Shown: positions 39,953 to 52,294, counted from the first letter of the stretch. The stretch is DNA of 64,000 bases from Gemmatimonadota bacterium (GCA_029863245.1 JAOTVV010000002.1:192242-256241); one strand, 5' to 3'. Notes: generated from the sequence alone by a model not told the origin. Program-made: numbers and translations.

Positions 39953-39980
39953 TTGACAAACCCGAACCGCGCTCTAGGTT
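39953..39980 (+). promoter_or_regulatory. putative sigma70-type promoter of the TetR gene / paa-like operon
   Basis: TTGACA-N16-TAGGTT, 26 nt upstream of the TetR ATG. Confidence 0.45.
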
Positions 39981-39985
39981 TTATC

Positions 39986-40001
39986 TCGAACGAACGTTCG
40001 A
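39986..40001. promoter_or_regulatory. palindromic operator candidate (TetR autoregulation)
   Basis: TCGAACG-AA-CGTTCGA (contains the perfect 10-mer CGAACGTTCG), between the -10 element and the ATG at 40006. Confidence 0.45.
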
Positions 40002-40005
40002 AAAG

Positions 40006-40605
40006 ATGATGACCTACGACGAGCGCCTCGAGCACCTCTTGGCCACCGCGGCCAACATCTTCGCCGCCCATGGCTTCCATTCCACGACCATGCGAGACCT
40101 CTCGCGGGCCACCGGAATGAGCCTGGCCGGCATGTATTACTACGTGGAAGGCAAGGACGAGCTGCTGTTCCTCATCCAGGAACGGTGTTTCACAGAGGTC
40201 CTGACTGGCGCGCGGGCGGCGATCGCGGCGGAGACGGACCCGCTGGAGCGCTTGCGGCGGTTCATCCGCCACCATGTCGGGTTCTTTACGGCGCACATGG
40301 CGGAGATGAAAGTGCTGTCGCATGAGGCGGAGAGCTTGAGCGGTGAGCGGTGGGAGACAGTCAATCGGCTCAAGCGCACCTACGTCGACCTGCTGCTGTC
40401 GGTGTTGGACAGCGCCCGTCCCGAGGCCGACTCGTCGATCGATGCTCGCGTGGCCGCGTTTGCGCTGTTTGGCATGATGAACTGGATCTACACTTGGTAC
40501 GATACGGAGGGACCGGTCCCTCCGGACCGGCTCGCCGATCAGTTGGCCGAGTTGTTCATGCTCGGGCTCGTGCCCTCGACCGTGCCGGCCGCCCAACAGG
40601 GATGA
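40006..40605 (+). CDS. TetR/AcrR family transcriptional regulator
   Basis: 199 aa. N-terminal HTH: AANIFAAHGFHSTTMRDLSRATGMSLAGMYYYV.GKDELL. Confidence 0.9.
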   Translation: MMTYDERLEHLLATAANIFAAHGFHSTTMRDLSRATGMSLAGMYYYVEGKDELLFLIQERCFTEVLTGARAAIAAETDPLERLRRFIRHHVGFFTAHMAEMKVLSHEAESLSGERWETVNRLKRTYVDLLLSVLDSARPEADSSIDARVAAFALFGMMNWIYTWYDTEGPVPPDRLADQLAELFMLGLVPSTVPAAQQG

Positions 40606-40639: not shown

Positions 40640-41581
40640 GTGACCCCCAAGCCGCTCGACCCCGCGGAGCAGGCTCTCATCGCCCGGATCAACGACGGGC
40701 TCATGATCGAGACCGTAGCAGACATGACCCCGGGATACAAGAAGGCGCTCCTGACGCAGCTGACCGTTCAGGGCGATACGGAGCTGATGAGCGCCCCCGC
40801 CTACTACTTAGCGGCCAGGGATGCCCCCACCATCAACAGCCGGATCGCGGTCACGGCCATCGTGCATGATGAGTTGGGCCACGCGAACATCGCCTATCGC
40901 ATCATGGAAGATCTGGGCGCCGACAAGCGTCAGCTCGTGTACGGTCGACAGCCCCACGAGTTCAAGCACCCGTACGGATTCGACCAACCACTGGAGAACT
41001 GGGCGGAGATGGTCGTAGCCAATGGCTTCTTCGACCGGGCGGGGATCACGCTCCTCTCCGACGTGCACCAAAACACGAGCTACGGCCCACTCAAACGCGC
41101 CCTCGTGAAGGTGGATCGTGAGGAGGTGCTGCACCTTCGCCACGGCGAGTCGTGGATGAAGAGGCTGGCCAAAGCCGGCGGCGAGGCACGAGACGCCCTG
41201 CAACGCACCGTGGATTGGATGTTCCCGATGACGCTCGAGTGGTTTGGCCTCCCCGACGATCTCAAGCGCCACAGCGGGCAGCTGGCGTATCGTCTCAAGG
41301 GTCTCACCAACGATCAGCTGCGGCAGACCTGGATGGCGGCCACGGTGCCATTGTGCGAGGGGATTGGTGTCGAGGTCCCGGCACACTTCGATGAGGCGAC
41401 CGACGCGTACGTCATCGACTTCCCCTTCCCCTGCCAGTACGACCCGAACGCCAAGCGCTGGCTGTTCGACGAGCCGCTCACGTGGGATCAGGTGTTCGAC
41501 CGCTGGAAGGCCCGTGGCCCGATGAACGAGCGCTATGTCGAGATGATCCAAGGCACCTTTGGGAGCGTCGTTGCCAACTGA
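40640..41581 (+). CDS. paaA: 1,2-phenylacetyl-CoA epoxidase subunit A-like di-iron oxygenase
   Basis: 313 aa, GTG start. Ferritin-like E..H motifs (HDELGHANIAY; DREEVLHLRHGESW). Followed by paaB/paaC/paaD homologues. Confidence 0.8.
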   Translation: MTPKPLDPAEQALIARINDGLMIETVADMTPGYKKALLTQLTVQGDTELMSAPAYYLAARDAPTINSRIAVTAIVHDELGHANIAYRIMEDLGADKRQLVYGRQPHEFKHPYGFDQPLENWAEMVVANGFFDRAGITLLSDVHQNTSYGPLKRALVKVDREEVLHLRHGESWMKRLAKAGGEARDALQRTVDWMFPMTLEWFGLPDDLKRHSGQLAYRLKGLTNDQLRQTWMAATVPLCEGIGVEVPAHFDEATDAYVIDFPFPCQYDPNAKRWLFDEPLTWDQVFDRWKARGPMNERYVEMIQGTFGSVVAN

Positions 41582-41882
41582 TCGACAGGTCTGGGATGCG
41601 CTCGGCGGAGTGACGGATCCGGAGTTCCCGCTGAGCATCGTCGATCTGGGCATGGTGTACGGGGTGCAGGTCGAGGCCACCCGGACCCGGGTGACCATGA
41701 CCTTCACCTCGATCGGATGCCCGGCCATTGACATGCTGGTTGCCGATGTGCGAGAGGCCGTCGGAGCGCTGCCGGGCGTCGATGAGGTCGACGTAGAAAT
41801 CGTCTGGGATCCACCGTGGACCCGAGACCGGATCAGCGACCGCGGGCGGCGGGTGCTGGCCATGTACGGCGTCGTCGGATGA
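41559..41882 (+). CDS. paaD: DUF59/MIP18-family protein = N-terminal domain of PaaD
   Basis: 107 aa: V.DPEFPLSIVDLGMVY.V......V.MTFTS.GCPA...L. Stops before the Zn-ribbon that full-length PaaD carries. Start (TTG at 41559 or 41571) is uncertain. Confidence 0.7.
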   Translation: MGASLPTDRQVWDALGGVTDPEFPLSIVDLGMVYGVQVEATRTRVTMTFTSIGCPAIDMLVADVREAVGALPGVDEVDVEIVWDPPWTRDRISDRGRRVLAMYGVVG

Positions 41883-41895
41883 GCGGAGGAGATGC

Positions 41896-42111
41896 ATGAG
41901 CTCAGGAAGGGTGTATGAGGTGTTTGCGCGAAAGAACCACGATGAGGAGCTGAAGCACGTCGGGAGCGTCAACGCCACCGACGACGACCTCGCCAAAGCA
42001 TACGCGTGGACCCTCTACGACGAGGAGCGCTGGGTCGAGATGTGTGTCGTGCCGCGAAGCGCCATCGTATCGATCACGAACGAGGGACCGCTCCCCGTAT
42101 GGGGGAACTAG
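41896..42111 (+). CDS. paaB: 1,2-phenylacetyl-CoA epoxidase subunit B
   Basis: 71 aa. VYEVFARKNHDEELKHVGSVNA...A...A...Y.ER.W.EM.VVP...I is PaaB-like. Confidence 0.8.
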   Translation: MSSGRVYEVFARKNHDEELKHVGSVNATDDDLAKAYAWTLYDEERWVEMCVVPRSAIVSITNEGPLPVWGN

Positions 42112-42165
42112 GGTGAACGACGGTCAGGCGACATCCCAGAGGCGAACGAGGATTCACGAGAGCAC

Positions 42166-42987
42166 ATGAGCATCGCGACGACACCCGCATTCGAGTCCAC
42201 CGAGGGCATGAGCGAGCCCTGCGCGCGGGGTCTCCGCCAGATCCTGCTGGCCTGCGCCGACACCAAACTCCTGCTTGGCTACCACTACGGTGAGTGGACC
42301 TTCGGGACGCCCGAACTGGAAGCGGCCGTGGCCAGTTGCTCGCTGGCGCAAGGGGAATTGGGCCACGTGCGGTTGCTGCACGCCCTGTTGAGCAAGCATT
42401 TCGGCGACGATCCCGACGCGCTCATGGACAAACGAGCGGCCACGGACTTCGCCAACGTCGGCTTTCTGGATCGGACCGTGGTCGACTGGGCCGGGTTCGT
42501 GGCGATGAACTACGTGGTGGACCTCGCGGTCACGCGGGTGCTCCACTCTATGCAGGGCTCCACGTTCAAGCCGATCCACATGAGCGTCGACAAGATGCTC
42601 GACGAGGAGCGCTACCACCTGCATCATGGACGCGGCTGGTTCCGCACGCTGGCGACACGAGGTGGTGAGACGAAGACTGCCCTGGAGCGTCAGGCAGAAC
42701 TGGCCCTACGGTCGGTCGCGGAGTGGCTCGGACCGGCCGACGACCACGACGATCGCGCCCTGGTGTCGGCGGGGGTGAAGCGCGCCGACAATCAGACCAT
42801 CTACCGCGCGCTGTGTGACGACGTCGAGCGCCTGGCTGCGGCAGTGGGAACTCGGGTGCAGGCCCCTGCCCCGACCAATTTCTCGGGATGGACTTCGGCA
42901 AACCGGCGCATTGGCGGCGGCGGTCCGGACGAGGAGATTCTCTTCCACCTACGCGGCACCAAGAACGAGGTATTCAAGCTGAACTGA
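42166..42987 (+). CDS. paaC: 1,2-phenylacetyl-CoA epoxidase subunit C-like protein
   Basis: 273 aa. ADTKLLLGYHYGEWTFG.PELE..VA..SLAQ.ELGH.RLL is the PaaC pattern. Confidence 0.75.
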   Translation: MSIATTPAFESTEGMSEPCARGLRQILLACADTKLLLGYHYGEWTFGTPELEAAVASCSLAQGELGHVRLLHALLSKHFGDDPDALMDKRAATDFANVGFLDRTVVDWAGFVAMNYVVDLAVTRVLHSMQGSTFKPIHMSVDKMLDEERYHLHHGRGWFRTLATRGGETKTALERQAELALRSVAEWLGPADDHDDRALVSAGVKRADNQTIYRALCDDVERLAAAVGTRVQAPAPTNFSGWTSANRRIGGGGPDEEILFHLRGTKNEVFKLN

Positions 42988-43172
42988 TGGCCGAGCCCCT
43001 AGTGCCCTGCCCATTCTGCAGATCCACCGAGACCGAGAAGCGATCGGATTTCGGGACGTCCCTCATGGTACGGCTCCATTACTGCCGGGATTGCCACTCC
43101 CATTTCGAGGCCATCAAGTGGGGTGACCGTGCGGCGAAGCTCGATCTGCCGCAGTTCCTCGAGGAGCGGTGA
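42987..43172 (+). CDS. stand-alone PaaD-type zinc-ribbon protein
   Basis: Last 61 aa of ORF 42888..43172, from the ATG at 42987 overlapping the paaC stop (TGATG). VPCPFCRSTETEKRSDFGTSLMVRLHYCRDCHSHFEAIKW resembles the C-terminal CPxC...SEFGST...YxCxxCxxPFxxFK ribbon of PaaD (from memory). Confidence 0.6.
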   Translation: MAEPLVPCPFCRSTETEKRSDFGTSLMVRLHYCRDCHSHFEAIKWGDRAAKLDLPQFLEER

Positions 43173-43248: not shown

Positions 43249-44058
43249 ATGACCGATTGGGCAGCCCCGACCAAGAAGACGCTTGTGGAGTATCGAGTGG
43301 AGGACGGGATCGCCATCCTGACCCTCAACGATCCCCCAGCGAATACCTACACGTACAACATGATGCAGCAGCTGGACCGGGCCATTGTCACGGCGCGCAT
43401 GGACGATGACGCCCACGTGATCGTCCTCCGCGGTCAGGGCGAGAAGTTCTTCTCCGCCGGGGCCAACATCCAGATGCTGAACGAGGTCACTCCCCGGTTC
43501 AAATACTTCTTCTGTCTCCACGCCAACGAGACACTCAATCGTTTGGAGCACACCCCGAAGCTGGTGATCGGGGCTCTCAACGGCCACACCGTGGGCGGTG
43601 GTCTCGAGATCGCCCTCGCGTGCGACATCCGCGTTGCCGCCAAAGATGCCGGAAAGATCGGCTTGCCCGAAGTGAACCTGGGCGTTTTGCCCGGGACCGG
43701 TGGCACCCAGCGTCTATCTCGCATCCTCGGCAAGTCGCAGTCGATTGAGATGATGGCGACGGGAACCCTCTTTTCGTTCGAAGAGGCCAAGCAGTGGGGC
43801 CTCGTGAACCGGATCTTTCCCAAAGCGACGTTCTGGGATGAGTTCATGAAGTACGCGCGCCAGTTCGTGCCGCCCAACAAGGCCGCGAAGGCCGTCGGCG
43901 CTATCAAGCGCGCGGTCTGCTCCGGGTGCGAGGTCCCCTTCGAGAGCGGTCTGGCCATCGAGCGCGAGTTGCAGCAGCAGCTCTTCCAGAGTCAGGACGC
44001 CAAAGAGGGGCTCGCCGCGTACGTCGAGAAGCGTACCCCCAACTTCACGGGCGCGTAG
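43249..44058 (+). CDS. enoyl-CoA hydratase/isomerase family protein (crotonase 1)
   Basis: ORF 43123..44058 trimmed to the ATG at 43249 (GGAGGA upstream). ILTLNDPPAN...FFSAGANI...NGHTVGGGLEIALACDIRV. Confidence 0.88.
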   Translation: MTDWAAPTKKTLVEYRVEDGIAILTLNDPPANTYTYNMMQQLDRAIVTARMDDDAHVIVLRGQGEKFFSAGANIQMLNEVTPRFKYFFCLHANETLNRLEHTPKLVIGALNGHTVGGGLEIALACDIRVAAKDAGKIGLPEVNLGVLPGTGGTQRLSRILGKSQSIEMMATGTLFSFEEAKQWGLVNRIFPKATFWDEFMKYARQFVPPNKAAKAVGAIKRAVCSGCEVPFESGLAIERELQQQLFQSQDAKEGLAAYVEKRTPNFTGA

Positions 44059-45492
44059 GTGCAGACGCGACTGTTCATCGGGAACGAATGGCGGGAGGCC
44101 ACCTCGGGCGCGACGCTCGAGGTGGTCAATCCGGCCACCGAGGAGCTCCTCGCTACGGTCCACGCCGCCGGTGAAGCCGACGTGGATGCCGCGGTCACGG
44201 CGGCGCGCGCCTGCTTCGAGTCGGATCCTTGGCGAGCCTTCTCGGGCCGTAAACGCGGCGCCTTGCTCCACCGCGCAGCCCAGCTTCTTCACGAGCGCGG
44301 CGACGAGCTGGCCGAGATGGAGACACGGCAGAACGGCAAGCCGCTGTTCGAGTCAAAGATCGATGTGGCGTCCACGGTGGAGACACTGACCTACTACGCG
44401 GGGTGGGCCGACAAGCTGGCCGGTGACGTGCTGCCTGTCGATGGGCCGGACTTCGTCTTCACCCAGCGGGAGCCGATCGGCGTGGTCGGCGCGATCGTCC
44501 CGTGGAACTTCCCGCTCAACTTGGCGAGCTGGAAGGTCGCACCCGCGCTCGCCGTGGGGTGCACGGTGGTGCTCAAACCCGCACCCGAGACGCCGCTCAC
44601 GGCGCTGGCACTCGCCGAGATTATGCTGGAAGCGGGGTTCCCCCCCGGGGCGATCAACGTGATCCCCGGGGATGGTCCCACCACCGGGGCAGCGCTGGTG
44701 CGCCATCCCGGCGTCGACAAGATCGCGTTCACGGGCTCCACCCCGGTGGGGCGGCAAGTCATGCGGGATGCTGCCGGCACGCTGAAGCGGGTGACCCTGG
44801 AGCTCGGTGGCAAGAGTCCGAACATCGTGTTTGCGGATGCCGACTTGAAGGCCGCCGTGCGCGGGGCGCAGACCGGCATCTTCTACGGCAAGGGCGAGGT
44901 GTGCGCTGCGGGGTCCCGCCTCTTGGTCGAGCGCTCGGTGCACGACCACGTCGTCGAGGAGCTCGTCGCGCGGGCAGCGAAGCTCGCCCCCGGCGACCCA
45001 TTCGACAAGGACACGCGCATCGGTGCGCTGGCGTCGAGGCGGCAATTCGACAAAGTGATGTCGTACGTCGAGGCGGGGAAACGTGAGGCGAAGCTCGTGA
45101 CCGGCGGGACGGCGACCAAGGTGAATGGCAAGGGTTATTTCGTCGAGGCGACCGTTTTCGACGACGCAGAGCCAGGAATGAAGATCGTGGAGGAAGAGAT
45201 CTTCGGTCCGGTGCTCGCCGTGTTGACGTTCGACGACGTAGACGAGGCCGTGCAGCTCGCCAACAGGACGATCTACGGATTGGCGGCAGGCGTCTGGACG
45301 AAAGACATCAAAAAGGCCTTCACCGTGGCCCGCGCCGTGCGCGCCGGCACGGTTTGGGTCAACAGCTACAACCTGTACGACTCGGCCGCCCCGTTCGGCG
45401 GATTCAAGGGAAGTGGCTTTGGCCGCGACCTGGGCCGTGAGGCGCTGGACGGCTACACGGACGTCAAGACGGTGTGGGTCGGCCTGCGGTGA
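44059..45492 (+). CDS. NAD(P)-dependent aldehyde dehydrogenase
   Basis: 477 aa, GTG start directly after the upstream TAG. VPWNFPL, FTGST.VG, ELGGKSP, EVCAAGSR (catalytic Cys), EEIFGPV. Confidence 0.93.
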   Translation: MQTRLFIGNEWREATSGATLEVVNPATEELLATVHAAGEADVDAAVTAARACFESDPWRAFSGRKRGALLHRAAQLLHERGDELAEMETRQNGKPLFESKIDVASTVETLTYYAGWADKLAGDVLPVDGPDFVFTQREPIGVVGAIVPWNFPLNLASWKVAPALAVGCTVVLKPAPETPLTALALAEIMLEAGFPPGAINVIPGDGPTTGAALVRHPGVDKIAFTGSTPVGRQVMRDAAGTLKRVTLELGGKSPNIVFADADLKAAVRGAQTGIFYGKGEVCAAGSRLLVERSVHDHVVEELVARAAKLAPGDPFDKDTRIGALASRRQFDKVMSYVEAGKREAKLVTGGTATKVNGKGYFVEATVFDDAEPGMKIVEEEIFGPVLAVLTFDDVDEAVQLANRTIYGLAAGVWTKDIKKAFTVARAVRAGTVWVNSYNLYDSAAPFGGFKGSGFGRDLGREALDGYTDVKTVWVGLR

Positions 45493-46307
45493 CCGGCCGA
45501 TCGACCGACGGGGGCGATCTCGAGAACGTCCTCGTCGAGGTGAAGAATGGCATCGGCACGATCACGCTCAATCGTCCCGAGAAGCTGAACGCGTTCGCTG
45601 GCCGCATGCGCGACGACGCTGCGTTGGCCGTGGAGCAGCTGGCCTCCGATCCCGCCGTGCGTGTCCTGGTGCTCACGGGCGCCGGGCGGGCCTTCTCGGC
45701 GGGTGCCGATGTCGCCTACATGCGCGACCTCCTCGCCAACGACGACACCGACGGCTTCACCGCCCTCGTGGAGTCCGGCAGAGCAGTCGTGACCCGGATC
45801 CGCGCCACGCCCAAACCCGTGATCGCCAGCGTCAACGGTCCCGCGGCAGGAGGAGGTGCAAACCTCGCTCTGGCCTGCGACATCCGGGTCGCCTCGGATC
45901 GAGCGTCCATCGGACAGACCTTCAATCGCATCGGCCTTCATCCCGATTGGGGCGGGACCTATTTCCTGCCGCGACTGGTAGGGCAATCCAAGGCATTGGA
46001 ACTCATCTTCACGGGGGAGATGGTGGGGGCGACCGAGGCCTTGCGTATCGGACTGTTCGATCGTGTGGTCCCTCACGACGAGCTGGCGTCGGCCACGACG
46101 ACTCTGGCCGCGTTGCTCGCGGCCAAGCCACCGCTGGCCCTGGCCCTGGCAAAACGCGCCATCTACCAGAGCCTCGATGGAACCATGGACGAAGTGTTGG
46201 ACCGAGAACTCGCCCACCAGCTCGAATGCTTCTCGTCCGACGACACGCGCGAGGGTCTTCGCGCCTTCCTGGAGAAGCGCGAGCCCCGGTTTCGGGGAAC
46301 GCAATGA
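45489..46307 (+). CDS. enoyl-CoA hydratase/isomerase family protein (crotonase 2)
   Basis: ORF 45474..46307. The GTG at 45489 gives a GTGA overlap with the ALDH stop. ITLNRPEKLNAF...LTGAGRAFSAGADV...NGPAAGGGANLALACDIRV. Confidence 0.88.
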   Translation: MTGRSTDGGDLENVLVEVKNGIGTITLNRPEKLNAFAGRMRDDAALAVEQLASDPAVRVLVLTGAGRAFSAGADVAYMRDLLANDDTDGFTALVESGRAVVTRIRATPKPVIASVNGPAAGGGANLALACDIRVASDRASIGQTFNRIGLHPDWGGTYFLPRLVGQSKALELIFTGEMVGATEALRIGLFDRVVPHDELASATTTLAALLAAKPPLALALAKRAIYQSLDGTMDEVLDRELAHQLECFSSDDTREGLRAFLEKREPRFRGTQ

Positions 46308-46975
46308 CCTTAGTCGTCGCCCATCGGGGTGCTTCGGCGTACGAAGTCGAGAACTCGCTGTCGGCCTTTCGGTTGGCCCACGCCATGGGCGCCGAAGGGA
46401 TCGAGCTGGATGTGCACGTGACGGCCGACGGCGTCCCGATCGTTCACCACGATCCGGTGGTAGACGGTCATCCCATCTGGCACACACCCTGGCCCGCACT
46501 CGAGGAGCATACGCTCTCAAACGGGGAATCGATGCCCACCCTGGCCGAGGCGCTGGAAGCGATCGATCCGTCGCTCCAGGTGTTTGTCGAGGTGAAATCA
46601 CTGTCGCCGCGGGATGACGTGAATCTCCTCTCGGTCATCGACCGTGGTCCGGCCCCATCCCAATACCAGGTGCACGCGTTCGATCACCGCATCGTCCGTC
46701 GGCTGCGCGCGCACCGGCCCACGCTCGAGGCTGGCGTGCTGTCCGCATCCTACCCCGTCAGGCCACTGGCCGCCGCACTGGAGGCGGGCGCCGCGGTGCT
46801 CTGGCAGGAAGAGACGCTGGTCGATGGAGACCTGATCGACCTCGCGCATGCAGAGCAGATCCAGGTCTTCGCCTGGACCGTGGACGACCGTGCCCGCATG
46901 CAGGTGCTCTCGAGCCTGGGGATCGACGCGCTCTGCACCAATCGCCCGGATGTGGCTCGGGAGGTGCTCGGGTGA
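46304..46975 (+). CDS. glycerophosphodiester phosphodiesterase family protein
   Basis: Last 223 aa of track ORF 45413..46975, from the ATG at 46304 (ATGA overlap). VVAHRGAS..EVENSLSAFRLA...GAEGIELDVH.T.DG.PIV.HD. Confidence 0.85.
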   Translation: MTLVVAHRGASAYEVENSLSAFRLAHAMGAEGIELDVHVTADGVPIVHHDPVVDGHPIWHTPWPALEEHTLSNGESMPTLAEALEAIDPSLQVFVEVKSLSPRDDVNLLSVIDRGPAPSQYQVHAFDHRIVRRLRAHRPTLEAGVLSASYPVRPLAAALEAGAAVLWQEETLVDGDLIDLAHAEQIQVFAWTVDDRARMQVLSSLGIDALCTNRPDVAREVLG

Positions 46976-47832
46976 CCCGGGTGTGCGTGATCGGCGCCGG
47001 CACCATGGGCCACGGCATCGCACAGATGGCCGCACTCGCGGGCTACGACACGGCCCTCACCGACGCCCGCGCCGAGGCGCTGCCGCAGGCCAAAGAGCGT
47101 ATCGACGCAAACCTCGAAGGGGGCATTGCACGCGGCAAGCTCTCCCGCGAGGCGGCGGATGCGGCCCGACAGCACCTGGCATTCAGCGAGCACTTGCGGG
47201 ATGCCGCCGCGGGAGCCGACCTGGTCATCGAAGCCATCGTCGAAGACCTCGACGCCAAGCGGAGCCTGATCGGCGAGGTCGACACACTGGTGTCGCCGCA
47301 GTGTGTCCTTGCCACCAACACGTCGTCGCTGTCGGTCGCACGCATCGCTGCTGCGTCTTCCGCGCCCGAACGCGTGATCGGCATGCACTTCTTCAACCCC
47401 GTGCACATCATGAGACTGGTCGAGCTGGTAGTCCACGACGGCACCAGCGCGCCGACGGTGGCCATTGCGCGGACCGTCGCCGAACGTCTGGGCAAGGTGC
47501 CCATCGTGGCCAAGGATCGGCCCGGGTTTGCGTCATCACGGCTCGGTGTGGTGCTCGGGCTTGAGGCCATGCGCATGGTGGAAGAGGGGGTCGCATCACC
47601 GGAAGACATCGACACCGCCATGGAGCTTGGCTACGGACACCCGATGGGGCCGCTCAAGGTGAGTGATCTGGTGGGGCTCGACGTACGGCTCGCGATAGCG
47701 GATTATCTACACCGCGAACTCAAAGGTCCATGGTATGCTCCGCCCGACATCCTGCGACGGAAAGTCGCAGCGGGGGAGCTGGGGAAGAAATCAGGGAGGG
47801 GGTTCTACGAATGGCCGACCAAGTCGTCGTAG
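46972..47832 (+). CDS. 3-hydroxyacyl-CoA (3-hydroxybutyryl/3-hydroxyadipyl-CoA) dehydrogenase
   Basis: 286 aa, GTGA overlap. VIGAGTMGHGIAQ...EAIVEDL..K......NTSSLS...GMHFFNP......DRPGF...R. PaaH/Hbd-like. Confidence 0.93.
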   Translation: MTRVCVIGAGTMGHGIAQMAALAGYDTALTDARAEALPQAKERIDANLEGGIARGKLSREAADAARQHLAFSEHLRDAAAGADLVIEAIVEDLDAKRSLIGEVDTLVSPQCVLATNTSSLSVARIAAASSAPERVIGMHFFNPVHIMRLVELVVHDGTSAPTVAIARTVAERLGKVPIVAKDRPGFASSRLGVVLGLEAMRMVEEGVASPEDIDTAMELGYGHPMGPLKVSDLVGLDVRLAIADYLHRELKGPWYAPPDILRRKVAAGELGKKSGRGFYEWPTKSS

Positions 47833-48590
47833 TCGACATCCAAGGGCGCGTCGCGACCGTCACCATCAATCGGCCCGACAAGCTCAACGCGCTGAACGCC
47901 CAGGTTCGTCATGACTTCGTGGCGGCCCTGGAAGACCTCGCGCGGAACGAAGCGGTCCGGGTGGTCATCGTCACGGGCTCCGGTGACAAGGCGTTCGTCG
48001 CCGGAGCGGACATCAAGGAATTCGCCGGTCGCACAGGCTACGATCAGTTCCGCGTCACCAAGAGCTTCGGGATCTTCGAAGCGCCGGAACGGTGTCCCAA
48101 GCCCGTGATCGCCGCGGTCAACGGTTTTGCACTCGGCGGCGGGTGCGAGCTGGCCATGGCGTGCGACGTCCGGATCGCGTCCCACACGGCGAAGCTCGGG
48201 CAGCCCGAGATCAACCTGGGCATTCTGCCGGGCGGTGGCGGCACGCAACGGCTTCCACGCCTGGTGGGTCTCGGCACGGCCTACAAGCTCCTCTACACTG
48301 GCGAGCTGGTGGGTGCTGAGGAGGCGCTCAGGATCGGTCTGGTGGACGAGGTTGTTCCGCACGAACGCCTCATGACGCGCGTGCAGGAGCTGGCCGGACA
48401 GATGGCTGAGAAGAGCCCTGCGGCGCTCCAGTTCATCAAAGAGGCTGTGCGGGCCAGCGTCCGGATGCCGCTCGACGAGGGCGTGCGGCTCGAGACTGCG
48501 CTGTTCGGCTTGGCGTTCTCCACCCACGACAAGGAAGAGGGCGTCCACGCCTTTCTCGAAAAGCGCAAAGCCGACTTCAAGGGCACGTGA
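47811..48590 (+). CDS. enoyl-CoA hydratase (crotonase 3, short-chain type)
   Basis: ORF 47730..48590 trimmed to the ATG at 47811. ATVTINRPDKLNAL...TGSGDKAFVAGADI...NGFALGGGCELAMACDVRI. Confidence 0.9.
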   Translation: MADQVVVVDIQGRVATVTINRPDKLNALNAQVRHDFVAALEDLARNEAVRVVIVTGSGDKAFVAGADIKEFAGRTGYDQFRVTKSFGIFEAPERCPKPVIAAVNGFALGGGCELAMACDVRIASHTAKLGQPEINLGILPGGGGTQRLPRLVGLGTAYKLLYTGELVGAEEALRIGLVDEVVPHERLMTRVQELAGQMAEKSPAALQFIKEAVRASVRMPLDEGVRLETALFGLAFSTHDKEEGVHAFLEKRKADFKGT

Positions 48591-49471
48591 GCGCGGAGGC
48601 CAATGCGGTGAGTGCCACGGCGCTCCCCGGGGTGACAGACTTGCACGTCCACATCCAGCCGTGGAGCCAGCTGAAGCCCGAGGTGGCCGCCGCGATGCGG
48701 CGCGGCAAGGAAGACCACTGGGAGCGCCTGCTCTCCTTGATGGAGGACCCCACGGCACTCCTCGAGGTCCTCGACACGAGCGGCATTTGGCGTGTCGGGC
48801 TCGTCAACTATCCCAGCCAAGACCTGATGGGATTTACCGACGACACAAACCTGTTTGCGGCGCAGTACGCATCGGCGGCACCCCAACGGCTCCTTCCCTA
48901 CGGAGGCGTTCATCCGCGGTTCACGACCGACCCTGAAGGGCAGGTGGAGGAGTTGCTGCGGCTGGGGATCCGTTGCCTCAAGATCCACCCACCGCACCAA
49001 GTCTTCCCCGCCAACGCCTACACTATGGGACTCGAGGCACTGGGGAAGATCTATCGCCGGTGTGAGGAGCGGGGTCTTCCGGTCATGATCCACACCGGCA
49101 CCAGCATCTTTCCCGGTGCGCGCAGCAAGTATGGCCGGCCCATGGAACTCGACGACGTCGCGATCGATTTCCCCGATCTCACCATCCTCATGGCCCACGG
49201 CGGACGGCCATTGTGGATGGACGAGGCCTTTTTCATTCTGCGGCGGCATCGGAACGTGTATCTGGAGCTGTCGGGCATTCCGCCAAAGAAGCTCCTGGAG
49301 TACTTCCCCCGTCTCGAAGAGATCGGCGATCGGGTCGTGTGGGGTACGGATTGGCCGAGTCCCGGGGTGAACGATCTCCGGCAGAACCTCGACCAGTTCA
49401 GGGCGTTGCCGCTGCCCGCTGCGCTCAAAGACAGCATCACGCGGACCACTCCCCTCCGGCTGTTCCCGTGA
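48587..49471 (+). CDS. amidohydrolase-2 (TIM-barrel metal-dependent hydrolase/decarboxylase) family protein
   Basis: 294 aa, GTGA overlap. DLHVHIQP...IKIHPPHQ...VMIHTG...LMAHGG...WGTDWP. Confidence 0.8.
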   Translation: MSAEANAVSATALPGVTDLHVHIQPWSQLKPEVAAAMRRGKEDHWERLLSLMEDPTALLEVLDTSGIWRVGLVNYPSQDLMGFTDDTNLFAAQYASAAPQRLLPYGGVHPRFTTDPEGQVEELLRLGIRCLKIHPPHQVFPANAYTMGLEALGKIYRRCEERGLPVMIHTGTSIFPGARSKYGRPMELDDVAIDFPDLTILMAHGGRPLWMDEAFFILRRHRNVYLELSGIPPKKLLEYFPRLEEIGDRVVWGTDWPSPGVNDLRQNLDQFRALPLPAALKDSITRTTPLRLFP

Positions 49472-50898
49472 AGTCCATCCGCTGGCTGCCGCTGGTCATC
49501 GGTCCCGCGCTGTGTGTCGGTGCCGTGGTCGTCCCTGCCCCCACCGGCATCACCGAGCCGGCGTGGCGCGTCGCCGGCGCAGCGAGCTGGATGGCCGTGT
49601 GGTGGCTCACCGCCGTTGTGCCGCTCGAGGCGACGTCGTTGCTCCCGATCGTGCTCCTCCCCGTCTTGCGTATCTCACCCGTGGGAGACGTGACACCCGC
49701 ATACGCCGACCCGATCATCTTCTTGTTCATGGGGGGCTTCTTCCTCGCAGCGACCCTGGAGCGGTGGGGACTGCACAAGCGGTTTGCGCTGGCCACGGTG
49801 CGCGCCATCGGGACCAGCGCCCCGAAGGTGGTGCTCGCGTTCATGATCGCGTCCGGCGTGGCGAGCATGTGGATCTCGAACACGGCCACCGCGGTCATGA
49901 TGTTGCCGATTGCCATGGCGGTAGTCGGAGCGAAGGGACAGGACTCCCCGCACGACGGATTCCCCACGGCGCTCCTGCTCGGCATTGCATACGGCGCGTC
50001 AATCGGAGGCGTCGCTACGCTGATCGGCACACCGCCCAATGCGATTTTTGCCGGCGCGGCCCGCGAGCTCCTGGGCATCGACGTGGGCTTCGCGGAGTGG
50101 ATGGCCATCGGTGTCCCCATCGCCATCCCGATGATGCTCGGGTGCTGGCTGCTGCTCGTGTGGATGTTCCAGGTGCGCGGCACGATTCCGGGGTTGGCAG
50201 CCGAAGTCGACCGCGAGCACGCCGACCTCGGTCCCATGCGAGGCGGCGAGCGCTTCGTGTTGTTCGTCTTCTTCTTCACGGCTGCCGCATGGATCCTGCG
50301 CTCGCCCAAGCTCATTGGCTCGGTACACATACCAGGCCTCGCCGACCTGGTCCCCGGGATCTCCGACGCCTCCATCGCGATCGGCGCAGCACTGGTGTTG
50401 TTCGTGGTGCCGCTCTGGCGCCAGCGGTTTGCCACCGCACTCGATTGGCAGACCGCGCGGCGCATCCCGTGGGGCGTGCTGCTGCTGTTCGGCGGCGGCC
50501 TCGCGCTCGCCCGGGCGTTCGAGGTATCGGGCCTCACGGAATGGCTCGGTGGCCAACTGGTCGGGCTGCGCGGTGTCCCCTTCCCAATTGTCATTGGCAC
50601 CACGGCCCTGCTGTTCGTCTTTCTCACCGAGCTCACCAGCAACACGGCCACGGCGGCGATCGGCATGCCGCTCATGGCGGGGGTGGCCGAGGGACTCGGC
50701 GTGGCGGCGCTTCCGCTCTTGACCACGGCCGCCCTGGCGGCCTCCATGGCGTTCATGCTGCCGGTAGCGACACCGCCCAATGCGATCGTGTTTGGCTCGG
50801 GTGCCGTGTCGCCGCGCGAGATGGCGCGGGCTGGACTACGGCTCAACTTTCTCTCGGTGACTATTATTACCGTGGTCCTGTGGCTGCGACTGGCGTGA
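49468..50898 (+). CDS. DASS/SLC13 family di-/tricarboxylate (anion):cation symporter
   Basis: ORF 49213..50898 trimmed to the GTG at 49468 (GTGA overlap). About 12 TM, with two hairpin motifs: SNTAT (twice) and GTPPNAI / ATPPNAIVFGSG. Confidence 0.85.
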   Translation: MKSIRWLPLVIGPALCVGAVVVPAPTGITEPAWRVAGAASWMAVWWLTAVVPLEATSLLPIVLLPVLRISPVGDVTPAYADPIIFLFMGGFFLAATLERWGLHKRFALATVRAIGTSAPKVVLAFMIASGVASMWISNTATAVMMLPIAMAVVGAKGQDSPHDGFPTALLLGIAYGASIGGVATLIGTPPNAIFAGAARELLGIDVGFAEWMAIGVPIAIPMMLGCWLLLVWMFQVRGTIPGLAAEVDREHADLGPMRGGERFVLFVFFFTAAAWILRSPKLIGSVHIPGLADLVPGISDASIAIGAALVLFVVPLWRQRFATALDWQTARRIPWGVLLLFGGGLALARAFEVSGLTEWLGGQLVGLRGVPFPIVIGTTALLFVFLTELTSNTATAAIGMPLMAGVAEGLGVAALPLLTTAALAASMAFMLPVATPPNAIVFGSGAVSPREMARAGLRLNFLSVTIITVVLWLRLA

Positions 50899-50932
50899 CA
50901 GCCCTGAGCATGAACCGTGTGGAGCACCGGAG

Positions 50933-51310
50933 ATGACAGCAGATCGCCTGTTGGTTGCGCTGGGAAGTGTGTCCGCGCTCTCGAGCGTGGCTGCCGGGGC
51001 GTTCGGTGCCCACGCGCTGCGGACCCGCCTCTCGGCCGATCTCCTCGAAGTTTTCGAAACGGCGGCGCGCTATCAGATGTATCACGCCCTGGCGATCTTC
51101 GTGGTGGTGTACGCCCACGGTCGGTGGGCCGGCGGCACGCTGGCAGCGGGGTGGCTCTTCGTCGCCGGAACGGTCATCTTCTCGGGGAGCCTGTATGCGT
51201 TGGCGTTGACCGGCACTCGGTGGCTCGGTGCCGTGACCCCGGTGGGCGGCGTGTGCTTCCTCGCCGGATGGACGGTGTTGGCGTGGTCGGTGCTCACTGC
51301 GCGACCCTGA
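50933..51310 (+). CDS. DUF423 (YgdD-like) membrane protein
   Basis: 125 aa, 4 TM: AAGAFGAHAL...A.RYQMYHALA...GSLY.LAL. Confidence 0.8.
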   Translation: MTADRLLVALGSVSALSSVAAGAFGAHALRTRLSADLLEVFETAARYQMYHALAIFVVVYAHGRWAGGTLAAGWLFVAGTVIFSGSLYALALTGTRWLGAVTPVGGVCFLAGWTVLAWSVLTARP

Positions 51311-51454
51311 ATACCTGCGCTCCCCCCCAAATGCTACGGCCGTGTTGACGGTGACTGTGGAGGGGTGGGGTCACGACGGTCGAGGAGCCGGCCAACAGCT
51401 TCAGAGTGTTCAGCCTCGGCCTGGGTGTGGACGGGACACGCGGGATGTGACAGC

Positions 51455-52294
51455 ATGCGTATGACGGTCTACTTGAACGGCGCCTACCTGCCCAAGGAAG
51501 AGGCGCACCTTTCCCCCGACGATCGCGGATTCCTGTTTGCGGACGGCATCTACGAGGTCGTGCGGAGCTACGGCGGGACCCTATTCGGCCTGGAACCGCA
51601 CCTCGACCGGATGGCCGACGGCCTCGCGGCCCTGCGCATTACCGGGGTCGACGTCGCCGAGCTGGCCACGGTCTGCCATGAGTTGCTCAAGCGGAATGAG
51701 CTCGACCGCAGCGACGCGCTCGTCTATCTGCAGATTACGCGAGGGGCGGCACCGCGTACGCACTTCTTCCCCGATCCACCGACCTCGCCCACTGTATACG
51801 CCACCACGATGCGGTTTCAGCCCAAGGGGGACCCCGCGTTGGGCGTGAAGGTGATTACCGCACCGGACCAGCGGTGGACGCGCTGCGACATCAAGTCGGT
51901 CGCGCTCTTGCCCAACTGCCTCGCCGCACAGACAGCGCGAGAGGCCGGAGTCTCCGAGGCGCTCCTGGTCCGCGACGGCGTCGTCCTCGAGGGAACGCAC
52001 ACCAGCTTCCTTGCCGTGATCGACGGCGTGGTGAGAACGGCCCCACTCTCCAACTACATCTTGCCCAGCATTACGCGGCAAGCAGCGCTGGATCTGTGCG
52101 AGCGCCACGGCATTCCGGCACTTCCCGCTCCGGTGTTCCTGCACGACCTCGCGGCAGCAGACGAGCTGTTCCTCGCCGGAACCACCATGGAGATCATGCC
52201 CATCGTCGAGGTGGACGGCCACCCCGTTGGCAGCGGAAACCCAGGCCCCGTGGCGGCGCGCCTCCTCGCGTTGTTCAGGAAACTCACCGGGTGA
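51455..52294 (+). CDS. class IV aminotransferase (D-amino-acid / branched-chain type)
   Basis: ORF 51365..52294 trimmed to the ATG at 51455. DRGFLFADGIYEVVRSY, catalytic Lys in CDIKSVALLPN, EGTHTSF, ITR. Confidence 0.88.
   Translation: MRMTVYLNGAYLPKEEAHLSPDDRGFLFADGIYEVVRSYGGTLFGLEPHLDRMADGLAALRITGVDVAELATVCHELLKRNELDRSDALVYLQITRGAAPRTHFFPDPPTSPTVYATTMRFQPKGDPALGVKVITAPDQRWTRCDIKSVALLPNCLAAQTAREAGVSEALLVRDGVVLEGTHTSFLAVIDGVVRTAPLSNYILPSITRQAALDLCERHGIPALPAPVFLHDLAAADELFLAGTTMEIMPIVEVDGHPVGSGNPGPVAARLLALFRKLTG

Follow-up and report, generated by a model that had tools for sequence, protein, structure and literature searches.

A TetR-headed operon of soil Gemmatimonadota that probably degrades an aromatic acyl-CoA through a ring epoxide

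Gene content and recurrence of the locus

Gemmatimonadota are abundant in soils and have been little studied. We analyzed a 64,000-nucleotide stretch of DNA from one member of the phylum (GCA_029863245.1 JAOTVV010000002.1:192242-256241; the whole stretch is referred to here as the window), which corresponds to contig C18 of a draft genome (3.68 Mb, 94% complete) whose nearest public relatives are Gemmatimonadales metagenome-assembled genomes. The analysis concerns positions 43249-50898, where eight genes lie on the + strand behind a block of genes for a diverged PaaABC-type diiron oxygenase. As judged from sequence comparisons, this region is probably the lower half of a TetR-controlled operon, hitherto unstudied, by which soil Gemmatimonadota would degrade an aromatic acyl-CoA through a ring epoxide. 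The genes considered are the following:

40006..40605, + strand: TetR-family regulator at the operon head (Pfam TetR_N and TetR_C_24)
40640..43172, + strand: oxygenase block of PaaA-like, DUF59, PaaB-like (71 amino acids), PaaC-like and Zn-ribbon genes
43249..44058, + strand: first crotonase, ECH1 (ECH_1, 199 bits)
44059..45492, + strand: aldehyde dehydrogenase, ALDH (Aldedh, 611 bits)
45489..46307, + strand: second crotonase, ECH2 (ECH_1)
46304..46975, + strand: short, cytosolic glycerophosphodiester phosphodiesterase, GDPD (GDPD, 112 bits)
46972..47832, + strand: short 3-hydroxyacyl-CoA dehydrogenase, HCDH (3HCDH_N and 3HCDH)
47811..48590, + strand: third crotonase, ECH3 (ECH_1)
48587..49471, + strand: amidohydrolase_2 TIM-barrel metal hydrolase, Amido2 (Amidohydro_2, 120 bits)
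49468..50898, + strand: DASS transporter (Na_sulph_symp/CitMHS)

All eight domains of the lower half were called by Pfam, in agreement throughout with the gene calls and the order (three crotonases, ALDH, GDPD, HCDH, amidohydrolase_2 and DASS) of an earlier note made from the sequence alone. With refined starts, five of the junctions are 4-nt GTGA/ATGA overlaps, one is a direct abutment of TAG and GTG, and one is a 22-nt overlap that sits behind a Shine-Dalgarno sequence, GGAGGGGG. The whole arrangement was found again in many Gemmatimonadales genomes at 51-98% protein identity and is, therefore, not a chance juxtaposition. A search for related loci with a 6-sequence alignment returned only Gemmatimonadota-like loci, at no less than 70% identity. 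For the core comparisons we used 13 species-representative loci of the PaaABC type with the lower half in cis, and 41 genomes of relatives were surveyed for oxygenase type and for Amido2. Operons of this type are widespread among Gemmatimonadota metagenome-assembled genomes, in which near-identical homologues of PaaA and of the amidohydrolase number in the thousands.

PaaA is the most conserved protein of the operon (85% mean identity over the 13 loci). Its identity is 59% with a Thermus plasmid homologue, 57% with one from haloarchaea and 30% with the E. coli protein; its NCBIfam score, 123 bits, is under the cut-off of 280. In NCBIfam, the haloarchaeal DUF59 protein goes under the name PaaD and the haloarchaeal Zn-ribbon protein under PaaE.

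Crotonases and dehydrogenases of the lower half

The three crotonases were placed in a maximum-likelihood tree of 26 sequences that included the E. coli enzymes, and their catalytic residues were read from an alignment with E. coli PaaF and PaaG. ECH2 is without both hydratase glutamates and keeps the PaaG-type catalytic aspartate in 'HPDWGGT' (the 'PD-x-GGT' segment), which is the residue pattern of E. coli PaaG and of the PaaG-like genes in canonical paa clusters of other Gemmatimonadota. It groups with E. coli PaaG (97/91), to which it is 40% identical, and its best NCBIfam match is the PaaG model TIGR02280, at 233 bits against a cut-off of 345; ECH2 is a predicted PaaG-type isomerase. ECH3 keeps both crotonase glutamates, groups with E. 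coli PaaF (93/95; 43% identical) and is missing from four of the 13 related loci. HCDH aligns with the first two thirds of E. coli PaaH at 42% identity. By catalytic residues, tree and identities, ECH3, ECH2 and HCDH thus map onto PaaF, PaaG and PaaH, as the earlier note had supposed, although these assignments are best taken as functional analogies rather than as family memberships.

ECH1, a single-domain protein of 269 amino acids, also keeps both crotonase glutamates (in the GGGLE and PEV motifs). In the tree it falls into one clade (98/96) with the crotonases found beside this oxygenase type on plasmids of Thermus thermophilus and of haloarchaea; it is 43% identical to the Thermus-cluster enzyme, has 2ppy as its best match in the PDB and shows a mean identity of 80.5% across relatives. 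We regard it as a candidate for the hydrolytic ring-opening enzyme. The ALDH next to it is a generic ALDH1/2-like protein (533 bits with PDB 4qf6), closest, among the sequences compared, to its counterparts in the haloarchaeal (49%) and Thermus (44%) clusters and only 26% identical to the ALDH domain of PaaZ. It scores 123 bits with the fused PaaZ model TIGR02278, for which the cut-off is 563, and is a candidate for the dehydrogenase of the ring-opened semialdehyde.

The replacement of PaaZ by a separate crotonase and ALDH is documented (PMC9007349), and the earlier note had proposed that it occurs here. What stands of this proposal is the architecture: a separate two-glutamate, (S)-type crotonase and an ALDH are present, as in the split systems with a PacL-type ALDH and a crotonase (Aromatoleum ECH-Aa, Paraburkholderia H281DRAFT_04594, NF046063), and Pfam finds no MaoC domain in the operon. 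What does not stand is kinship. NF046063, the model of the alternative crotonase-type oxepin-CoA hydrolase, has a cut-off of 300 bits, which neither ECH1 (134.7) nor ECH2 (179.6) reaches; ECH1 lies in its own oxygenase-tied clade, the ALDH was not shown to be PacL-like, and homology of the ECH1/ALDH pair to the published cases could not be shown.

These comparisons also bear on a simpler explanation, namely that we are dealing with ordinary short-chain fatty-acid or butyrate beta-oxidation genes that chance to adjoin oxygenase genes. The best NCBIfam models of ECH3 (short-chain enoyl-CoA hydratase) and HCDH (3-hydroxybutyryl-CoA dehydrogenase) would fit it, as would an acyl-CoA dehydrogenase encoded on the other strand, 5 kb downstream of the operon. 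However, conventional beta-oxidation clusters are present separately on contigs C41 and C33 of the same genome, the operon itself has an ALDH and no acyl-CoA dehydrogenase, and ECH2 carries the PaaG signature in place of the hydratase glutamates. The placement in ordinary fatty-acid clades that the earlier note had named as speaking against an aromatic pathway was not found, as ECH2 and ECH3 fall with E. coli PaaG and PaaF and ECH1 with the oxygenase-linked clade. As ECH1 and ALDH accompany diiron oxygenases in three phyla, and as the lower half is translationally coupled behind the oxygenase genes with a single operator, we consider the fatty-acid explanation highly improbable.

Regulatory sequences

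Two features 5' of tetR were read directly from the sequence:

39953..39980, + strand: promoter-like TTGACA-N16-TAGGTT
39987..40000, no strand assigned: putative TetR operator, the perfect palindrome CGAACGAACGTTCG, of the form CGAACG-N2-CGTTCG

The TTGAC(A/C)...TAGGTT pair is recognisable 5' of tetR in most related loci; a generic promoter/terminator scan did not call it. The operator palindrome has a single match in the whole window, and a palindrome of this form lies just 5' of tetR in all 16 related loci considered (PaaABC-type, BoxB-type and one reduced locus). Orthologues of TetR, at 50-96% identity, stand at the head of both PaaABC-type and BoxB-type operons. Between 39.5 and 53 kb the scan gave no promoter or terminator above shuffled expectation, and in the 76-nt gap before ECH1 there is no second copy of the operator. 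Taken together, the one operator match, the lack of a second copy before ECH1 and the lack of internal signals argue for a single TetR-controlled unit that would run from tetR through DASS. An internal promoter or terminator separating these genes from paaABC, which the earlier note had held to be the observation that would divide them, was thus not detected above chance in the region scanned.

The TetR of the window gave no BLASTP match to the TetR of the Thermus cluster at E ≤ 0.001. PfmR/TTHB023 of Thermus HB8 was considered as a homologous regulator and rejected, both for this reason and because its operon is a different acyl-CoA cluster.

One cassette with exchangeable oxygenases

Among the 41 relatives surveyed, 15 carry a BoxB-like gene of about 376 amino acids (173-198 bits against TIGR03225) and 10 carry the PaaABC type; the two co-occur in none of the 41. 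Of the 25 genomes that have one or the other oxygenase, 24 gave an Amido2 match, the exception being G021, an unpublished genome within the BoxB-like group; no match came from the relatives that have a canonical paa cluster alone (0/6) or nothing of either kind, neither oxygenase nor paa cluster (0/7). Amido2 is also present in G009, G030 and G034.

Three of the BoxB-type genomes, G024, G026 and G033, have the order TetR-ECH1-ALDH-thiolase-ECH2-[BoxB-like]-GDPD-HCDH-(ECH3)-Amido2, with identities to the window of 71-77% for ECH1, 63-69% for ALDH, 65-74% for Amido2 and 42-47% for GDPD. The flanks are as in the window: all three have an extracytoplasmic function (ECF) sigma operon upstream, G024 and G033 have rpmA-rplU-RNase G downstream, and in G024 these are followed by the acyl-CoA dehydrogenase. 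At loci L048 and L051, the PaaABC block is found between ECH1 and ALDH and not ahead of ECH1. The shared gene order, flanks and operator across oxygenase types indicate that the cassette is a stable, vertically inherited unit at one syntenic locus and that its oxygenase can be exchanged, with three insertion points. It is the distribution alone that suggests a direction of replacement, as branching in the ECH1 and Amido2 trees is not resolved. The link between PaaABC-type and BoxB-type operons as one cassette at one locus with swapped oxygenases is new here, as is the linkage of Amido2 to this oxygenase type across three phyla. That a nine-gene cassette with one operator takes two ring oxygenases at three insertion points suggests that the two are functionally equivalent.

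In Longimicrobiales, the PaaA-DUF59-PaaB-PaaC core occurs in five genomes, and in all five the ECH1 orthologues (65-67%) are located away from it. In the three that were inspected, ECH1 comes first in an unlinked operon of the order ECH1-ALDH-thiolase-HCDH-ECH(PaaF-like).

GDPD, Amido2 and the DASS transporter

The earlier note had regarded GDPD and the amidohydrolase_2 protein as unexpected passengers. This view has to be abandoned: both are conserved members of the cassette, each being present in 12 of the 13 core loci and also in BoxB-type and reduced loci. No protein of the operon is less conserved than GDPD (57% mean identity), although 11 orthologues all keep H7, R8, E34, D36, H38, H49, E96 and K98 (HRG, E-x-D-x-H, HD and E-x-K). 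GDPD matches Pfam PF03009 at 111.7 bits against a gathering score of 23.6, with 2pz0 and 1v8e as PDB matches, and its residues suggest that it is an active phosphodiesterase.

Within the operon, only PaaA is more conserved than Amido2 (81% mean identity). D18, H20, H22, H169, H204 and D255 are invariant, the HxH/His/His/Asp ligand set is kept and PF04909 is matched at 120 bits (gathering score 26.4). Among solved structures, that of the uncharacterised protein BB4693 (3irs) comes nearest, ahead of those of the lactonase LigI and of aromatic decarboxylases. The AlphaFold model, of moderate confidence (predicted local distance difference test score, pLDDT, of 72), fits LigI, the decarboxylases (gamma-resorcylate, LigW and 2,3-dihydroxybenzoate) and LigY, a C-C hydrolase, similarly well and makes no choice among their reactions; an ESM Atlas search returned the protein's own family alone. 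Amido2 shares the TIM-barrel and the HxH, His, His and Asp ligands with BB4693 and with LigI, gamma-resorcylate decarboxylase and LigY, members of a family that acts on aromatic-derived lactones, carboxylates and C-C bonds, but at only about 20% identity it is too far from any characterised member for a reaction to be transferred. Most probably, Amido2 acts on side products or in salvage, as an enzyme of the lactonase or C-C hydrolase kind. By analogy with the lactonase of Box clusters, and by inference only, we would favour a reaction in which it hydrolyses a lactone or another cyclic by-product to which the reactive semialdehyde or hydroxyacyl intermediates give rise.

Outside the phylum, orthologues of Amido2 (42-44%) adjoin the same PaaA type divergently in Halalkalicoccus sp. 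FCH27 and Haladaptatus pallidirubidus and lie 15-24 kb from it on three other haloarchaeal plasmids, and the Thermus plasmid cluster has a homologue at 33% identity (E 2e-32). GDPD and DASS found no counterpart when four Thermus and haloarchaeal clusters were re-scanned with the window proteins. The cultured Gemmatirosa kalamazoonensis carries on its plasmid 2 (L151:6206-7027) a 59%-identical Amido2 with no Paa- or BoxB-type cassette; an ECH2-like gene (34%) lies 3 kb 5' of it.

The last gene of the operon encodes a predicted sodium-coupled di/tricarboxylate transporter of the DASS/INDY type. It scores 264 bits with TIGR00785 (cut-off 198.6), and its two SNT motifs, SNTAT and SNTATA, can be aligned with NaCT, which together with NaDC and VcINDY provides the closest structures. 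With a presence in 10 of the 13 loci, and missing from BoxB-type, Thermus and haloarchaeal loci, DASS is a late, variable add-on.

Two reduced loci should be considered before GDPD and Amido2 are assigned to the pathway. In G034 (L161, G034:C4:106258-108772), the syntenic position holds TetR-GDPD-(60-amino-acid HCDH remnant)-Amido2, and in G030 (L162, G030:C210:16898-19307) it holds ECH-GDPD-Amido2; both loci adjoin the same ECF sigma gene, and neither has an oxygenase or other beta-oxidation genes. It could thus be argued that GDPD and Amido2 form an autonomous two-gene module, merely co-transcribed and with a job unrelated to aromatic CoA catabolism, the more so as the chemistry of GDPD has no obvious place in a CoA-thioester pathway and as Longimicrobiales do without both genes. 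The full cassette, however, has HCDH and ECH3 between the two, translationally coupled, and in haloarchaea and Thermus it is Amido2 without GDPD that adjoins the same oxygenase type. Amido2 is, in addition, missing from the relatives with a canonical paa cluster alone or no cassette, and the deletion in G034 is recent (genus-mates keep the full cassette and the HCDH remnant survives), so that intact genes there need not reflect selection. An autonomous module is, on balance, unlikely. As Longimicrobiales do without them, both proteins are dispensable for a minimal route, and we could not reconcile this dispensability with their persistence where the route is gone. Both are conserved enzyme candidates for which the textbook Paa and Box pathways offer no role.

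The thiolase

The earlier note had listed the thiolase as missing from the window; it is not a gap in the pathway. In 11 of the 13 related loci, a thiolase of 400 amino acids does stand between ALDH and ECH2; it has the Pfam Thiolase_N and Thiolase_C domains, is 56% identical to E. coli PaaJ and has 3-oxoadipyl-CoA thiolase as its best NCBIfam model (548 bits against 605). The window has no thiolase at this position. There, as in G008, G005, G006, G016 and locus L049, ALDH and ECH2 overlap or lie within about 26 nt of each other, leaving no space for a gene. A PcaF-like thiolase is encoded on contig C56 of the window genome, with 54% identity to the operon thiolase of the relatives and 59% to that of the Thermus cluster. 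This C56-type thiolase occurs in seven genomes of the genus at 83-96% identity, and G004, which keeps the operon thiolase, has neither the C56-type thiolase nor the CoA-transferase that accompanies it. It should be noted that these genomes are close kin and that the count carries no statistical weight. In the window lineage, the operon thiolase was lost from its position, by what looks like displacement by a paralogue.

On C56, a class I/II aminotransferase, the thiolase and a family III CoA-transferase stand in a row (G000 C56:16959-21288; L135:7960-12289). The best model of the transferase is succinyl-CoA:mesaconate or succinate-glutarate CoA-transferase, under the cut-off. Thiolase and transferase are adjacent in six more genomes of the genus (G001, G002, G003, G005, G007 and G008); G006 has the thiolase and no match to the transferase.

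Proposed pathway and its substrate

Read from protein families, catalytic residues and gene order, the pathway would begin with the diiron oxygenase (PaaA-DUF59-PaaB-PaaC-Zn ribbon) epoxidising the ring of a CoA thioester. ECH2 would shift the epoxide to the oxepin and, later, the 3,4- to the 2,3-enoyl double bond; ECH1, the two-glutamate crotonase co-inherited with this oxygenase type, would open the ring hydrolytically, and ALDH would oxidise the resulting CoA-semialdehyde. In the window genome, the thiolase step would be supplied from contig C56.

The operon is a variant of the known CoA-dependent epoxide pathways and shares features with two of them. Like the Paa lower half of E. coli and Pseudomonas, it follows a PaaABC-type diiron oxygenase and has PaaG-type (40%, with the same catalytic aspartate), PaaF-like (43%) and PaaH-like (42%) proteins and, in the operons of relatives, a PaaJ-like thiolase (56%). 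Unlike that pathway, it has no fused PaaZ and no MaoC, with the two-glutamate ECH1 and an ALDH1/2-like enzyme instead; HCDH is without the C-terminal third of PaaH, GDPD, Amido2 and DASS are embedded among the genes, the curated Paa models are all below cut-off, and no PaaK or PaaE was found in the window genome.

With the Box pathway (BoxAB, BoxC, BoxD and lactonase) the operon would share the epoxide of a CoA thioester, hydrolytic opening by a two-glutamate crotonase fold and a semialdehyde dehydrogenase, then an isomerase, a hydratase, a dehydrogenase and a 3-oxoadipyl-CoA thiolase. Its cluster hydrolase, Amido2, comes from a lactonase-containing family, sister lineages use a BoxB-like oxygenase in the cassette, and the clusters outside the phylum have genes of the benzoate-CoA ligase family and, in Haloterrigena, a NuoF-like/FdhA pair. 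The operon differs from Box in having no BoxA and no two-domain BoxC of about 550 amino acids and in an ALDH that is not of the BoxD/PaaN type: BoxC (2w3p) is not among the best 60 of 82 PDB matches for ECH1, nor is BoxD (2vro) among the best 60 of 95 for ALDH. The Box lactonase is an alpha/beta hydrolase and Amido2 an amidohydrolase_2 protein (analogous, not homologous), and the oxygenase of the window is PaaABC-like.

As to the substrate, a benzoyl-CoA-like compound, to which we would give not quite an even chance, is at least as likely as phenylacetyl-CoA, which we hold to be clearly less probable than not; other aromatic CoA esters make up the rest. The earlier note's doubt over phenylacetate was justified, as a search for PaaK (TIGR02155) gave no match at E ≤ 0.001 in the 94%-complete genome, although a draft cannot prove absence. 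The ligases of the related clusters point in the same direction. With the benzoate-CoA ligase family model (cut-off 375), that of the Thermus cluster scores 591 bits, that of Haladaptatus pallidirubidus 392 and that of Haloterrigena, just short, 371, and none of the three is a PaaK. In the window genome, the substrate is perhaps activated by the CoA-transferase of C56 or by a 2-oxoacid oxidoreductase.

A genuine phenylacetate pathway can nonetheless be composed from these genes, with PaaABC(D) acting on phenylacetyl-CoA, ECH2 as PaaG, ECH1 and ALDH in place of PaaZ, for which the record of such a replacement (PMC9007349) gives a precedent, ECH3 as PaaF and HCDH as PaaH. The oxygenase subunits are homologous to PaaA, PaaB, PaaC and PaaD, ECH2 bears the PaaG signature and the haloarchaeal DUF59 and Zn-ribbon proteins carry NCBIfam's PaaD and PaaE names. 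Phenylacetyl-CoA might be supplied without PaaK, for example from phenylpyruvate via a 2-oxoacid:ferredoxin oxidoreductase, and there are five POR-family loci in the window genome. The haloarchaeal clusters further include a MaoC/PaaZ-C domain protein, a gamma-carbonic-anhydrase-like (PaaY-like) protein and a thioesterase; Box regulons, however, also hold MaoC-type genes as an option, together with a NuoF-like/FdhA pair and a lactonase for 3-hydroxyadipyl lactone (PMC6449761). In sister lineages, however, this cassette works with a BoxB-like oxygenase at the same locus, PaaA itself falls below the PaaA cut-off and, as described, PaaK was not found and none of the cluster ligases is one. A phenylacetate pathway appears to us somewhat unlikely.

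The alternative that we put forward, tentatively and as still short of an even chance, is that the cassette is a Box-like rather than a Paa-like lower pathway. The PaaABC-type and short BoxB-type enzymes would then epoxidise one and the same benzoyl-CoA-like substrate and could stand in for each other. ECH1 would correspond to BoxC in minimal form, with one domain, Amido2 would be a new, non-homologous lactonase or C-C hydrolase of the pathway, and GDPD would be a protein with an undescribed role.

Several observations weigh against aromatic acyl-CoA degradation as the role of the operon and should be considered when referring to it. No match to an NCBIfam model of PaaG, PaaF, PaaH or the alternative oxepin-CoA hydrolase reaches the curated cut-off, and the ALDH belongs to a generic ALDH1/2-like group in which its best named models, the StyD (phenylacetaldehyde) and BADH (betaine-aldehyde) dehydrogenases, are likewise all below cut-off. 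Neither a PaaK-type or benzoate-type CoA ligase nor a PaaE-type reductase was found in the window genome. In Longimicrobiales, the oxygenase core lies among housekeeping genes in the one genome inspected for this, none of the five genomes gave a match to Amido2, and both GDPD and a PaaG-type ECH are lacking from the three operons inspected. Finally, G030 and G034 retain GDPD and Amido2 without the pathway, which makes an independent job of the pair possible.

Homologues of PaaA and PaaC have been proposed as markers of phenylacetate catabolism (PMC13186573). Caution is warranted here, as such homologues are not proof of phenylacetate degradation. If the Box-like reading is true, 'PaaA/PaaC' genes would indicate another aromatic pathway in Gemmatimonadota, Thermus and haloarchaea.

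Neighbouring genes and minor observations

Two genes follow the operon:

50933..51310, + strand: DUF423 membrane protein (Pfam DUF423)
51365..52294, + strand: class IV aminotransferase, D-amino-acid transaminase-like

The open reading frame 3' of DASS is DUF423 at 50933-51310; the frame beginning at 50917 is not the gene. DUF423 adjoins the 3' end of the operon in the closest relatives only and is probably outside the pathway. DUF423 and the aminotransferase were set aside as pathway members, given their variable spacing among relatives and the D-amino-acid transaminase-like profile of the latter, which falls just short of both PRK06680 (266 bits against 320) and TIGR01121 (246 against 277).

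In the haloarchaea, two UbiD-family decarboxylases and a metallo-beta-lactamase (MBL)-fold hydrolase recur in the clusters, and on pHTUR01 of Haloterrigena turkmenica (L139:24239-28894) the NuoF-like Fe-S protein and the alpha subunit of formate dehydrogenase (FdhA) adjoin the PaaABC-type cluster; in Betaproteobacteria, this pair has been described beside Box genes.

Two observations concern the small genes of the oxygenase block. On the Thermus thermophilus plasmid pHB5018c (L137:14722-14838, - strand), a small, unannotated Zn-ribbon open reading frame, 49% identical to the Zn ribbon of the window, overlaps in another frame the annotated start of the crotonase 3' of the PaaC-like gene. A second copy of DUF59 (36-45% identical to that of the window) lies about 100-200 nt 5' of PaaA in L096, L097, L099 and about 20 other Longimicrobiales-type loci, where the oxygenase core stands without the lower half within 10 kb; the neighbours checked at L096 and L078 are housekeeping genes (phosphofructokinase (PFK), MOSC, gyrA and glutathione synthetase).

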